Shown here: positions 1 to 6,000 of the stretch, in pieces
Layout: every line of letters starts with the position of its first letter
Numbering within the stretch: the stretch's first letter is position 1
Virus record (IMG/VR): IMGVR_UViG_2737471845_000005
Strand: one strand, 5' to 3'
DNA length: 30,396 nt
From: a virus
Lineage: Duplodnaviria; Heunggongvirae; Uroviricota; Caudoviricetes
Program-made: the position numbers

Positions 1-3000
1 GGATGGCTGGTCGAAAATGATGTTGGGCTTTCTCTACCTAACTTTGAACGTCATAACGGAAAAAGCTCTAAAAAACGGGCGGTTACAAACGAGCGAGTTA
101 CAAAAATACGCGAACTGAAACGAAAAGGTAACGCTGCCAGCGTTACACAAACGGATCAAAAAGCGTTACCAGAGGAAGAGGAAGAGGAAGATCTAAATAC
201 TGATCTCCCCCTAAATCCCCCTCGCCAAAAACGAGCGTCTAAAAAATTCGAGCCGGAGGCTATTGAGCTGCCTGATTGGTTGCCGGAAACACTCTGGCAT
301 GAGTGGGTCCGGTTCAGACAGGTATTGCGAAAACCGATTCGAACGGAGCAGGGCGCTAACGGGGCGATACGGGAACTGGAAAAATTCCGTCAGCAGGGTT
401 TTACACCTGAGCAGGTGATTCGACACAGCATCGCCAATGAATACCAGGGCTTGTTCGCACCGAAAGGTGTTCGGCCTGAGACGTTGCTCCGACAGGTTAA
501 CACCGTCTCGTTGCCGGACAGTGCGATCCCGCCAGGCTTCAGGGGGTAACAGACCATGAAAAATATTGCGACAGGCGGCGTTCTGGAGCGTATCCGCAGA
601 CTGACCCCACCACATGTAACCGCCCCATTCAGAACGGTTGCGGAGTGGCGCGAGTGGCAACTTGCTGAAGGCCAGAAACGTTGCGAGGAGATCAACCGCC
701 TGAATCGTCAGTTGCGGGTGGAAAAAATCCTGAATCGCTCTGGCATCCAGCCGTTGCACCGCAAATGCTCGTTTGCGAATTACCAGGTGCAGAACGAAGG
801 GCAGCGATACGCGTTAAGCCAGGCGAAATCCATCGCCGATGAACTGATGACCGGGTGTACAAATTTTGCGTTCAGCGGAAAACCTGGTACCGGGAAGAAT
901 CACTTAGCGGCAGCTATCGGGAATCGCCTGCTGAAAGACGGTCAGACAGTGATTGTGGTTACCGTGGCTGATGTTATGAGCGCCCTGCACGCCAGCTATG
1001 ACGACGGGCAGTCAGGCGAAAAATTTTTGCGGGAGCTGTGCGAAGTGGATCTGCTGGTTCTTGATGAAATTGGCATTCAGCGCGAGACGAAAAACGAGCA
1101 GGTGGTGCTGCACCAGATTGTTGATCGCCGGACAGCGTCGATGCGCAGTGTGGGGATGCTGACAAACCTGAACTATGAGGCCATGAAAACATTGCTCGGC
1201 GAGCGGATTATGGATCGCATGACCATGAACGGCGGGCGATGGGTGAATTTTAACTGGGAGAGCTGGCGTCCGAATGTTGGTCAGCCAGGAATTGAGAAGT
1301 AATTTTTACCGGGAGGAAATTTTAATGGAGACTGTTTTTGACGCACTGAAAGCAATGGGAAAAGCCACATCCATAGAACTTGCTGCGCGACTTGATATCA
1401 GTCGTGAAGAAGTGCTGAACGAACTATGGGAACTGAAAAAGGCTGGTTTTGTTGATAAAAGCGCGTACACCTGGCGTGTGGCTGATAACAACGTTCAGCA
1501 GGAACAGCCAGCGCAGGCAGAACAGCCGGAAGAAACCACCACAGCAACAGTAGCGAAAATCTCAGAGTGCGATTTAACCGCGACGATTGAACAACGCGGA
1601 CCACAAACGGCTGATGAGCTGGCTACATTGTTTGGTACCACATCACGCAAAGTGGCTTCAACGCTGGCAATGGCAATCAGCAAAGGTCGTCTGATTCGCG
1701 TAAATCAGTGCGGTAAATTTCGTTACTGCATGCCGGGCGGTAATTTACCAGCAGAGCCGAAAGTTGAATCGGTAGCGGAAACCGATGGTAAAGCCTTTCC
1801 TCAGCCTGCAGGTGTTGCGTTACCAGTACAGGAAGCTGCAACACAGGAAGAAATTAAAACAGAAACTGTGGCGGACATTGTGCAGTCGCTGCCATCGTTT
1901 ACTGAAACGCGAGCGGATGACCTGGTTTTACCATCGCTTCATATGGCAAACCGCGAACTGCGCCGGGCGAAAAATCATGTCCAGAGGTGGGAGCGAGTCT
2001 GCGCCGCGCTGCGGGAGCTGAACAAGCACCGGGATATTGTTCGACAGATTTTCGATTCCTCCAGTCGTATTGTGTCGGAAAAGTGATTGCCGGAGGCACC
2101 TATGGCAAAAGTATTTACACCAGAAGAGCGGGAAAAAATTAAAGGGCAGGTTGTTGAACTTGTACGTCTGAGCGGTCGCGAGACGTTACGGGCTCTGGAG
2201 GCTAAAACCGGTGCATCAAGGTATTACATAAGCACTCTCGCCAGAGAATTGGTCGCCAGTGGTGATGTTTACAATTCAGGCTACTGATTATTCCCGTCTG
2301 AGCAGGCGCGTAAAGACTGGCAAAACGCCCGCAAAAAACTATCAAGGGCAAAGGTGAAGAAACCGGTTGTGGTTGATCCTGACCTTATCTGGTCATTACC
2401 AGACGGAGAAATACGTCGTTACAACAGACGACAGAACATAATCTGTCGCGAGTGCCGGAATAGTGAGGTTATGCAGCGAGTGCTGGCGTTTTATCAGGGG
2501 AGTTTTCAGGAGGTGGCACAGTGAGCGGGATTGACTACCAAGAATTGGCTGCTGCCAACGCTTTCCTGGCGGATGTGCGGGCAGGGGCGTTTAACGACCT
2601 TTGCGCGGCGTTTGTCAGGCACGCAAAAATTGCAGGACTGGGTGATGCCGATACCGTAACGCTTAAGGAAGTGACAGAAGCATTGTTGCATTGTGCGGAA
2701 CAGATTCGCGCGGCTGAATAATTAAATTTAGTGTTGTAAATAAAATTTAATCCTTAACCGGAGGGATTTCTGCACCCTCAAATAATCAGGAGGCCGCCCA
2801 AAAGGGCGGAACAGATAATGCTTACGTTGAAACATTTTATCGACATACCAACATGGTTAGCCGTCATTGCTTTTGTTAAAATACACATCCACTTTTCTGT
2901 GCAATGTTTAACCACTGGTCATATCAAATGGTATTCATGCGAACCATGATATAGAATCATGGCTTGAGAGAGTCGATGAAAGCGCAACTATGGTATGAGA

Positions 3001-6000
3001 GACATTGATGTAAGAAAGGCTGTGCATGCCAAGATTCTGAGAGATCATCATAAAGATCCTGACACCCTAATCATTGATGAGTTTACGATGAATCTAGGGG
3101 CTAGCAGAGCTGATATAGCAGTGATCAATGGGCTTATACATGGTTATGAGTTGAAGAGCAAGAGTGATAACTTGCTCAGATTACCAGCGCAGGTGCAACA
3201 TTACTCATCAGTGATGGATAAAGTAACGTTGGTTGTCTCTGATTGCCATCTTTATGATGCTTTAAGCATAGTTCCATCATGGTGGGGGATAAAGCAAGTT
3301 ACGCAAGGTGCACGGCAAGGTATCCATTTAAAAACAATTCGAACTAGCAAGTTGAATCCACAAGTGGACAAACTTTCCTTAACAATGCTTCTTTGGAAAG
3401 ATGAATTGCTTTCCCTATTAAGTGATGTAGGGGAGCTACAGAATTTGAAAAATAAACCTAAACGCGTCTTATGGTCAAAACTCGCCAATAGTATGGATGT
3501 TGGCGAGCTTCGTGAAGCTGTTCGAGTTAAACTTAAAGCCCGTAAAGAGTGGCGAGTTGCTCAACAACCTTAGTTATGTGATGGTTTTGCCCAATCCTAC
3601 GCCATACCTCTGGGCTACCAAATTTATAGTTACCAGAGGGATTGGCTTTGTAGGCTTGATACTCGTTTGCATAATATTCTATGTCTCTATCTCCCGCACA
3701 GAATGTAGGCCCTGAATATTCTCGATGAGCAAGAATATCCTCACTATGTTTACCATATTGTTCATAACCAAAGCGATTAGCTACTCTTCCTCGAAATACC
3801 CAAAAGTCATTATCTCCAGAGTATCTGACGCTGGCAGATACGCTAGGGAATCGCGTCGAAAGCCTATTAAAGTCGGGGTGCTGTACTCCATAATCACTAT
3901 AAATCACATTTCTGGCAAGTTCTTTTCTATTCATTAAACTCTGCCATAAAATCCACTCGATTCGAGGTTGAGAATATAGACCAACAGAAATATCACTGAG
4001 ATCTGTAGGAAATGAACCCCCAGAAAGAATCACTTTTCTGTATTCATTGAGGTGCGCCAGATTGTTTATCAATCCCATTGCCAAAGTATATAGTTCGCCG
4101 GAATTAAGTTTATCCTCGGTTAACTCATCTCTTAAGTCAATAATTATATCAATATTTGATAAAGGAATTCCCAGATGATTAATGTAATGCGTTATTAATT
4201 GTGGGTTAACCAGATCTAACGTGGTTAATCTCAAGCATATTTCATTCTGCATTAATTCATCAATCGCTCTTTTATAGTTAGATGGGCGAGTTGGTGAACT
4301 GACAGGAATAACTCTTATCCCCATATCTCTAACTTGATGAACCGCATTTATTATAGGGTAATGATCTTCAGGAGAAATAAAATGCTCTTCAATTAATAAT
4401 CCATCAATATAAACACCTTGCATATCTGAGCAAGATTTTGAGACTTTCTTTCCGAACTCTATAAGAGTCTCGTTATAACTCTTTAAGGCAATACCTGAAT
4501 CAGGGTCAATTGGCACTGGTTCAATTTCGAGTAATGGCAAAATTTTTGATTTCTTTTCAATGGATAGCTGCGATAAAGCTGATAACTCAGAACGTTTCGC
4601 TTTCAGAATAGGAATATATGAAATTGTCATGTTAATACCTTATACAGAATCAATTAACAATTAATGGTTCTTCGGACATTGAAATTTATATCGCAAAAAT
4701 TGGCAAACTCTCCTCGACTACTCACTTGTGGGTATCCTGGCGTAAAAGGAATGACTTGGCAATACCCGGTGTGATCATAAGTCATTGAAAATGATCATTT
4801 TTATCAGTCTTTCTTCCATGATGAATGCTAATGCCATTTGATTTGTTGAGGTGAAAACTGTTAAAAATCAAAACGATGTAATTGAAATGAACGTTCGGTA
4901 GCATTCACGCTTTAAATGTTTCTTTTGTGCTGATTGGATGAATTTTGGTCACTTATGATGAGAGATGTTGCAGGAAAAGAAGTTGGCATTGATCTATTGG
5001 ATAGTTAGAATTGCTGCGGGTGCTTGAGGCTATCTGCCTCAGGCATGAACACCAAAAGGCAGACAGAGAAAAGCCCCAGTTAACATTACGCGTCCTGCAA
5101 GACGCTTAACATTAATCTGAGGCCCAATCTATGTCTCACAAATGTAGGTTAGCCTCTTACGTGCCGAAAGGCAAGGAGAAGCAGGCTATGAAGCAGCAAA
5201 AGGCGATGTTATTCGCCCTGATTGTCATCTGTTTAACCGTCATAGTGACGGCACTGGTAACGAGGAAGGACCTCTGCGAGGTACGAATCCGAACCGGCCA
5301 GACGGAGGTCGCTGTCTTCACAGCTTACGAACCTGAGGAGTAAGAGACCAGGCGGGGGAGAAATCCCTCGCCACCTCTCATGTGTCAGGCATCCTCAACG
5401 CACCCGCACTAAACCCGCTTCGGCGGGTTTTTTGTTGCGCGCTGAATGCGCAGGGTGAAAAATAACCATATATTTGATTATATACACAACAAAAAATAAA
5501 AGTCATTGTACCTGCACATTAAATAATCAAATATACGGCGTGAAATAAATATTTTTCAGATTAATATTTTTGTCTCTATGTGGATATAACCGTTTGTACT
5601 TATAAACTCGGAGGCATCGTGGAAAAAATAAAGAAACTATTTAGTTGCAAATACGCAGTCATACGTCGTGATGACCTGTCAGTTATAGTCGAAATGGATT
5701 ACTTCCCTGAAACCCCAAAATCAATGATGTATCGTAATGGTCGAAAGGCAATTTTTTTACCGATGAGGGTAAGTGACATTATGGGAAATGATAAACTGCT
5801 GGATGAATTGCGAGTCAGAGCATCATGTTAGTATTGGCATTAATTCTGGTATACTACATAACGGGCTGAACACCCATTCTACTGCGCCAGCGGAGAACTA
5901 CGATGGCGCATATACAACTGGTCAAACAAACCTCTTCCGGATTACTTCTCCCGGCGACGCCGGAGAGTTGCGATTTTTTGCATCAAATCAAAATAGGTGA

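Follow-up and report, generated by a model that had tools for sequence, protein, structure and literature searches.

Two anti-phage systems that contain Beta-family proteins, gop-beta-cII and PD-lambda-2, are described in the literature we searched as separate three-gene systems. The gop-beta-cII locus of phage P4 shields against lambda and P1 and is non-essential in P4 (Rousset et al., PMC9122126), and P4 beta neutralises the toxin Gop (as cited in PMC9122126). PD-lambda-2 comprises a HigB-like protein (A), an Xre/peptidase protein (B) and a P4-beta-like protein (C): B alone is toxic, A rescues this toxicity and C is needed to defend against lambda-vir (Vassallo et al. 2022, PMC9519451). Here we analyse a related locus in IMG/VR record IMGVR_UViG_2737471845_000005, a 30,396-nucleotide stretch of Caudoviricetes DNA (its full length is called the window below), in which an sce7726-family gene and a Beta-family gene converge and share their 3' ends.

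Our comparison suggests that gop-beta-cII and PD-lambda-2 are both built on one conserved core, in which the gene of a TIM-barrel Beta protein converges with that of a PD-(D/E)xK nuclease. By family profiles and gene layout, the pair in the window is a gop-less relative of both. We read it as an intact, minimal two-gene member of the Beta/cII (sce7726) group in a horizontally acquired cassette of a lambdoid (Rac-like) prophage, which most likely, with confidence a little above even, protects the lysogen against other phages. As the original prediction from the DNA had it, the open reading frame (ORF) list contains two intact tail-to-tail genes whose 3' ends overlap by 41 bp:

2995..3573, + strand: sce7726 / Phage_P4_cII-family gene, 192 residues, ATG start
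3533..4630, - strand: Beta-family gene, 365 residues, ATG start
3533..3573, unstranded: antiparallel overlap of both 3' ends, 41 bp, both stop codons included
3541..3558, unstranded: dual-coded core, with the sce7726 R183, W186 and R187 codons antisense to Beta L359 and L362

Identity of the two proteins

The 192-residue protein scores 191.1 bits against the NCBIfam model sce7726_fam (NF033832; cut-off 70), its residues 1-184 covering profile positions 1-183 of 184. It also scores 97.7 bits against the PADLOC 'cll' model (E=2.4e-28) and matches phrog_984. It returns no Pfam match because the local Pfam copy lacks the PF26915 model, and PF26915, 'Phage_P4_cII', is the label precomputed for all of its close homologues. 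RefSeq in turn labels P4 cII an sce7726 family protein. Judged by these matches, the window protein is a homologue of P4 cII, whose name derives from a plaque phenotype.

The protein consists of an N-terminal PD-(D/E)xK nuclease domain (residues ~1-120) and a C-terminal helical domain (~126-190). The PD-(D/E)xK fold is confident: it displays the alpha-beta-beta-beta-alpha-beta core, strand 2 bearing the D and strand 3 the (D/E)xK. E29, D40 and E52-x-K54 are invariant and the catalytic motif is intact. The small protein had been proposed to be restriction-endonuclease-like from a D...ExK arrangement in two peptides, and this holds: ADIAV contains D40, GYELKSK contains E52 and K54, and fold and invariant residues agree. 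By its fold and the canonical E...D...ExK residues, we consider it a putative nuclease. The nearest structure is that of SPO1766 (PDB 3dnx), an uncharacterised PD-(D/E)xK protein, and no sequence homologues are present in the PDB. Some homologues carry the depositor names 'DNA repair protein MmcB-like' or 'exonuclease'.

The 365-residue protein, which starts with MTISYIPILKAKRSELSAL as originally quoted, scores 179.8 bits against Pfam Beta_protein (PF14350; threshold 27), residues 5-356 covering profile positions 1-341 of 342, and matches phrog_9159. Two PADLOC PD-Lambda-2_C models match it near full length (PDLC03983, 140.2 bits; PDLC03984, 128.9 bits), and the PADLOC 'beta' model made for P4 reaches 18.4 bits over residues 4-40 only. 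At the level of clusters at 50% identity, the Beta family has ~4,300 representatives. The original assignment to the Beta family and to an sce7725/sce7726 pairing was correct for Beta_protein and for sce7726. Membership of the sce7725 family (NF033831) was rejected: the score is 12.3 bits against a cut-off of 60, from the N-terminal 35 residues only. Nor does the sce7725 model match P4 beta or any of six Beta partners from other phyla.

Beta is a single-domain TIM barrel with C-terminal helices. Conserved Asp, Arg and His residues are present, and the strand ends of the barrel form a conserved, charged face rich in Asp and Arg, such as an enzyme would be expected to have. Probably Beta is an enzyme whose ligand is phosphorylated or resembles a nucleotide. 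Its likeness to the queuine/preQ0 base-exchange TIM barrels (TGT/DpdA) is no more specific than that to a generic TIM barrel.

Comparison with gop-beta-cII and PD-lambda-2

The P4 order is gop (247-648), beta (651-1718) and then the convergent cII (1746-2540), with a 27-bp gap and an annotated terminator between beta and cII. Both P4 and the window thus have a Beta-family and a cII/sce7726-family gene converging tail to tail, and the P4 system likewise occupies a mobile element's variable cargo hotspot. The differences are considerable: gop is missing from the window, even as a remnant (tblastn with P4 gop gave a best E of 0.99 and no match within 4631-5005, the flank upstream of Beta), window Beta is ~21% identical to P4 beta, and P4 cII is longer (264 residues) and ~28% identical to the window protein over the N-terminal half. 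The P4 genes also do not overlap, whereas those of the window do, by 41 bp. A P4 cII terminator mutation reportedly has a phenotype that was attributed to reduced beta expression.

PD-lambda-2 resembles the window in its component C, a Beta-family protein whose models are the best PADLOC match of window Beta, and in its operons outside E. coli, which end with the same convergent, overlapping cII/sce7726 gene. The window differs in lacking the HigB-like A and the Xre helix-turn-helix/M78-peptidase B, and window Beta shares only 23% identity with E. coli PD-lambda-2C.

Relatives of the sce7726 protein were searched in one genome per species, which returned 448 loci, and the best 80 were used. 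In about 9-13 of these 80, PD-lambda-2 A and B lie upstream of Beta and the convergent cII gene is present as well; the HigB-like component A occurs in relatives such as L022, L173 and L175. Four loci were obtained with PD-lambda-2B homologues, which had been chosen for long contigs alone. In each, the order is (HigB-)Xre/M78-Beta and then cII, which converges on Beta and overlaps it by 50 bp every time. The occurrence of A, B, Beta and a convergent cII gene together in the sampled loci implies that PD-lambda-2-type loci usually have a fourth gene, one that the published three-gene description leaves out and that current detection models apparently also lack. The PD-lambda-2B-like Xre/M78 peptidases themselves (L172-L175, L022 and others) have more than 7,000 matches at E<=1e-10 and are unusually well conserved: the top 120, with candidate-phyla-radiation bacteria and Scalindua among them, show 63-75% identity.

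The homologous E. coli locus of AREA_C483 (L176, 2898-7447) stands in here for the PD-lambda-2 locus of ECOR42. This PD-lambda-2-type locus encodes HigB, ImmA/IrrE and beta family proteins, with a clean terminator after the Beta gene. A gene for a 549-residue DUF6119 protein converges on Beta there from 263 bp away.

Conservation of the gene pair

A Beta-family ORF lies directly downstream of the sce7726 gene, on the opposite strand, in 77 of the 80 species-representative loci, and in two of the three loci without it the contig edge is within 200 bp. The same layout is found in 79 of 80 loci on viral contigs. On these two counts, the convergent Beta/sce7726 arrangement is far beyond chance. 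Sampling from the other side gives the same result: each of four distant Beta homologues (25-36% identity) found independently of sce7726 has a PF26915 neighbour that converges on it and overlaps it, and all four PD-lambda-2B loci have the convergent Beta/cII pair. Across ~170 loci the two genes are never reoriented and never separated by more than 39 bp.

The hosts include Pseudomonadota, Myxococcota, Acidobacteriota, Bacillota, Actinomycetota (plus Gordonia phages), Chloroflexota, Patescibacteria, Gastranaerophilales, Thermodesulfobacteriota, Armatimonadota and Gemmatimonadota. The two proteins diverge in a correlated way across loci (Pearson 0.75, Mantel p<=0.001; among deep pairs alone, 0.33). 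From their sequences and layout, the Beta and sce7726 genes are inherited as a unit across at least 10 phyla.

No third gene is universally conserved across the 80 loci, where the largest neighbour family occurs in ~9-13. At least 17 loci, the window and its enterobacterial relatives included, have nothing upstream of Beta, and neither the window nor relatives L005-L012 have an adjacent same-strand ORF of 50 residues or more beside it. Upstream partners of Beta other than those of PD-lambda-2 include DUF6932 with an Xre/M78 protein, an HExxH protein with a ~230-residue protein, and an FRG-domain protein. Neighbours in other genomes include TIR proteins, KAP/AAA NTPases, PDDEXK/Cas4-like proteins, methyltransferases, HicAB and recombinases or integrases.

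Several of these loci have features of their own. Directly 5' of Beta in L168 (866-1477), L169 (3395-3997), L050 and L079 is a protein of ~200-240 residues with the N-terminal motif LLIDTDAFCKLG and no Pfam match. It is preceded in all of them by an HExxH protein of ~290-345 residues, also with no Pfam match, and the two form another accessory module of the Beta family. In the Xenorhabdus koppenhoeferi locus (L013, 5968-7807), sce7726 is intact with its catalytic residues kept, and the co-directional ORFs resemble a Ser/Thr kinase (HRDLKPANIL) and a PP2C phosphatase; its sister species (L014) retains Beta, across a 39-bp gap. An identical Beta/cII element with a 110-bp overlap recurs in L023-L028 and L032, from assemblies labelled Bordetella, Bradyrhizobium and Afipia, which reflects either a mobile element that spread recently or cross-contamination among metagenome-assembled genomes. 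The Nocardiopsis locus L071 resembles Stenotrophomonas loci.

Phase and register of the 3' overlap

The overlap at 3533-3573 encodes sce7726 residues 180-192 and Beta residues 353-365, each with its stop codon. Codon positions pair 1:1, 2:3 and 3:2 across the strands, so that the wobble position of each gene faces the second position of the other. Among the 77 species-representative pairs, 75 overlap, by 11-167 bp: there are 26 distinct lengths and every one is 2 mod 3. The two pairs that do not overlap (gaps of 14 and 39 bp) depart from this rule. All overlapping viral loci obey it, as do the eight independently sampled loci, every one of which overlaps (by 32, 29, 44, 47 and, in four cases, 50 bp).

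The register of the two genes was computed by mapping conserved residues through profile alignments, which made 82 loci scorable. In 73 of them the sce7726 W186 codon (3550-3552 in the window) is located exactly 26 nt from the antisense Beta H351 codon (3578-3580). The other distances in overlapping pairs, 29, 50 and 65, differ by multiples of three. Stop positions drift, from 1 to 29 codons past W186 and from 11 to 32 codons past H351, and the overlap lengths vary as a result.

Per-column information identifies the part of the overlap that is constrained in both frames. In the 18-nt core (3541-3558) all three codon-position classes are constrained, at 0.90-1.17 bits. Upstream of the core only the signature of the sce7726 frame is seen, with position 2 above 1 above 3 (0.84, 0.48 and 0.15), and downstream of it only that of the Beta frame (0.78, 0.69 and 0.25). 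By these patterns, the tail-to-tail overlap is ancestral and phase-locked across phyla, and this conservation is the strongest new support for a meaningful overlap. It appears to be a rare bacterial example of long-lived antiparallel dual coding.

A conserved RNA structure or bidirectional terminator as the cause of the fixed register was rejected: the consensus fold energy over 64 sequences is 0, and the single hairpin of the window is not conserved. Likewise, a consensus terminator scan finds nothing in or near the overlap, in line with the earlier statement that no terminator separates the genes. Folding gives one weak candidate:

~3470..3508, - strand: weak terminator-like hairpin for the Beta transcript, within the sce7726 coding sequence (RNA fold)

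It consists of CTCGCCAA, an 11-nt loop and TTGGCGAG, then TTTTG, giving a 4-U tail; it falls below the criteria of the terminator scan and is not conserved even among enterobacterial relatives. Because no conserved terminator lies between the genes, each transcript would enter the 3' coding region of its partner. The original prediction had the two mRNAs mutually antisense and their regulation coupled, and we hypothesise such a coupling of the nuclease and Beta mRNAs by antisense pairing.

Possible function

An anti-phage role had been the leading hypothesis from the start, and it is strengthened by the two closest named relatives being validated defence systems. The position of the pair in a cargo slot and its neighbours in other genomes also point to defence. 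In the two-gene form the nuclease would be the effector and Beta a sensor or regulator that licenses or restrains it during infection. Other lineages may have added toxin modules to the Beta operon, namely Gop, HigB/M78 peptidase, DUF6932 or FRG. More speculatively, convergent transcription or antisense pairing may set the ratio of nuclease to Beta.

A number of observations weigh against such a defence pair. The case for two-gene Beta/cII pairs is drawn from relatives that have extra toxin genes. The AREA_C483 locus has no sce7726 gene or remnant, and the published PD-lambda-2 clone reaches only 396 bp beyond gene C; together these imply that Beta-dependent defence can work without the nuclease. 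Conversely, an sce7726 nuclease occurs without Beta in phage Mx4, and that of Xenorhabdus koppenhoeferi is found beside the kinase/phosphatase pair instead of Beta, which indicates that the nuclease is not strictly Beta-dependent. Neither structure nor sequence links the Beta TIM barrel specifically to any characterised enzyme. Finally, neither gene has a consensus promoter above the scan threshold.

The overlap itself can be interpreted in two ways. The Beta/cII pair could be an ancient, self-contained immune chassis in which the phase-locked overlap is a working part of the switch, an idea we think rather unlikely. Convergent transcription or antisense pairing of the two coding mRNAs would restrain the nuclease, and a phage that disturbs transcription, RNA turnover or a metabolite sensed by Beta would free it; gop-beta-cII and PD-lambda-2 would then be lineage-specific elaborations with extra toxins on the same Beta sensor. 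If true, more than 10 phyla would share a protein-protein gene pair under control of the type I or III toxin-antitoxin kind. The hok/sok type of antisense-controlled toxin is similar in that overlapping opposite RNAs could couple a toxic gene to its partner, and differs from the window, where conserved proteins are encoded on both strands and the overlap is at the 3' ends, not in a 5' leader. The second interpretation, to which we give a sizeable chance just short of even, is that the overlap regulates nothing and is a frozen accident, held in register passively since both C-terminal helices are needed (R183, W186 and R187 in sce7726; L359, L362 and H351 in Beta). Frameshifting indels would then be lethal to one of the partners, and any coupling of expression by antisense RNA would be irrelevant. 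Consistent with this, only ~18 nt are constrained in both frames, each tail outside the core rides the frame of the other gene with its stop free to drift, and the overlap has neither a conserved RNA structure nor a terminator. Both genes are also retained where the overlap is lost, as in P4 (with its 27-bp gap and terminator), L014 and L015. However, convergence and abutment persist even without overlap, and among ~170 loci no pair is separated or co-directional, which suggests selection on the arrangement itself. The reported effect of the P4 cII terminator mutation on beta would likewise speak for genuine interference between the convergent genes.

Three further explanations concern what the pair does. 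It could be a selfish addiction module resembling a restriction-modification (R-M) system, in which Beta enzymatically protects a cellular target from the nuclease, for instance through modification of DNA, RNA or a metabolite. Loss of the cassette would then kill the cell, and invading DNA that lacks protection would be cut incidentally. A nuclease and an enzyme-like partner that converge from independent promoters are indeed typical of many type II R-M systems, and the likeness extends to the PD-(D/E)xK fold, carriage on mobile elements (here beside recombinases and integrases) and a defence role; P4 beta neutralises the Gop toxin (cited in PMC9122126), and Beta without the nuclease, as in the E. 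coli PD-lambda-2-type locus, would be the counterpart of an orphan methyltransferase. The likeness is an analogy only. Neither window protein nor the cassette contains a methyltransferase domain and no sequence link of Beta to modification enzymes was found. The intact nucleases without Beta in Mx4 and Xenorhabdus would be unexpected were Beta an essential antidote, and PD-lambda-2 C is not needed against toxicity (PMC9519451); we consider such a module improbable. It is more improbable still that the pair serves the life cycle of the phage itself, through lysogeny control, recombination or repair. The name 'cII', the 'MmcB-like DNA repair' and 'exonuclease' labels on homologues, the structural match to SPO1766 and the adjoining replication genes all hint at this. 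Yet the cassette is missing from most otherwise similar lambdoid phages, which have unrelated cargo in the slot, P4 does not need the gop-beta-cII region, chromosomal islands other than phages carry the pair widely across phyla, and its closest named relatives score as defence systems. That the two ORFs arose by chance or are remnants in decay we regard as next to inconceivable: their atypical base composition and the overlap, and nothing more, would suggest it, and it is contradicted by full-length, high-scoring profile matches, confident folds, conserved catalytic and core residues and 93 E. coli copies at least 98% identical. Pseudogene status is excluded by profile coverage and conservation, and an origin from one disrupted longer gene by both proteins spanning their family profiles end to end.

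The module itself has more precedent than the original prediction implied. In 93 E. coli genomes both genes already have RefSeq names; the small protein is homologous to P4 cII, a link that the prediction did not draw, and beta and cII converge already in P4. The gene families, both related defence systems and the RefSeq family names are already known. In the literature searched we did not find the two-gene Beta/cII pair described as the common core of both systems, nor the usual fourth, convergent nuclease gene of PD-lambda-2-type loci, nor a phase-locked antiparallel overlap of fixed register across phyla. As the stripped-down form, the window cassette is the simplest system in which to learn the targets of the nuclease and the signal sensed or reaction catalysed by Beta, and it makes the mechanism of two validated defence systems directly testable. 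The phase-locked overlap, for its part, offers a clean test case for telling a regulatory overlap from a frozen one.

The cassette and its surroundings

The pair occupies the accessory slot between the replication genes and the nin/Q block, a placement given in the original prediction and supported by gene order and homology borders. Its extent and flanks are as follows:

2844..5005, unstranded: low-GC cassette (moron) containing the two genes and their own flanks only (homology borders, GC)
2844..2994, + strand: non-coding flank upstream of sce7726, presumed promoter region, not conserved in relatives
4631..5005, - strand: flank upstream of Beta, 375 bp, AT-rich, non-coding, presumed promoter region

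The cassette measures ~2.16 kb and the slot is a variable site of the lambdoid prophage. Homology to the lambdoid phages PhiR42_1 and vB_EcoS-640R1 stops at ~2810-2843 and restarts at 5006, with different cargo between. The genes are AT-rich, as had been remarked: GC is 0.34-0.42 over 3001-5000, against ~0.50 in the flanks. No third gene was found in the cassette, and the small ORFs at 4654-4785 and 4782-4904 in the Beta flank are not conserved. Known RNA families are also absent from the cassette, the one sok match belonging to the adjoining hok/sok module.

The same cassette is present in phage Rac-SA53, where the depositor labels are 'CII phage-like protein' and 'beta', and in 93 of 5426 complete E. 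coli genomes, where it is chromosomal every time, at least 98% identical between copies and annotated by RefSeq as 'sce7726 family protein' and 'beta family protein'. The cassette flanks are kept only among these near-identical E. coli copies. In Rac-SA53 (L001, 5094-5859) an IS1 element sits at the left border of the cassette, and in E. coli PEC209 (hit H37) IS1 breaks the Beta gene and leaves the nuclease gene intact.

In the presumed promoter region of sce7726, a perfect 7-bp inverted repeat, CCATGAT-N5-ATCATGG (2944-2962), is located ~35-50 bp 5' of the start codon and overlaps the -10-like hexamer TAGAAT. It is a possible operator, although it is short enough to occur by chance.

Downstream of the cassette come Hok, DUF1367, YbcO and the Q region. 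Directly to its right is a complete hok/sok-type module (5018-5343), with mok/hok at 5131-5343 (PF01848) and a sok RNA at 5018-5193 that matches RF01794 with 118 bits (gathering score 59). Just 3' of hok, at 5352-5433, there is a sub-threshold match to the Hfq-binding small RNA isrK (30.6 bits, gathering score 50). Upstream, the gene order is a DnaC/IstB-like loader, DUF1627 and a split DUF977 (lygF-like) gene. The latter is divided into two ORFs (2087-2287 and 2354-2524) that cover profile positions 1-60 and 82-134, and is probably a frameshifted pseudogene.

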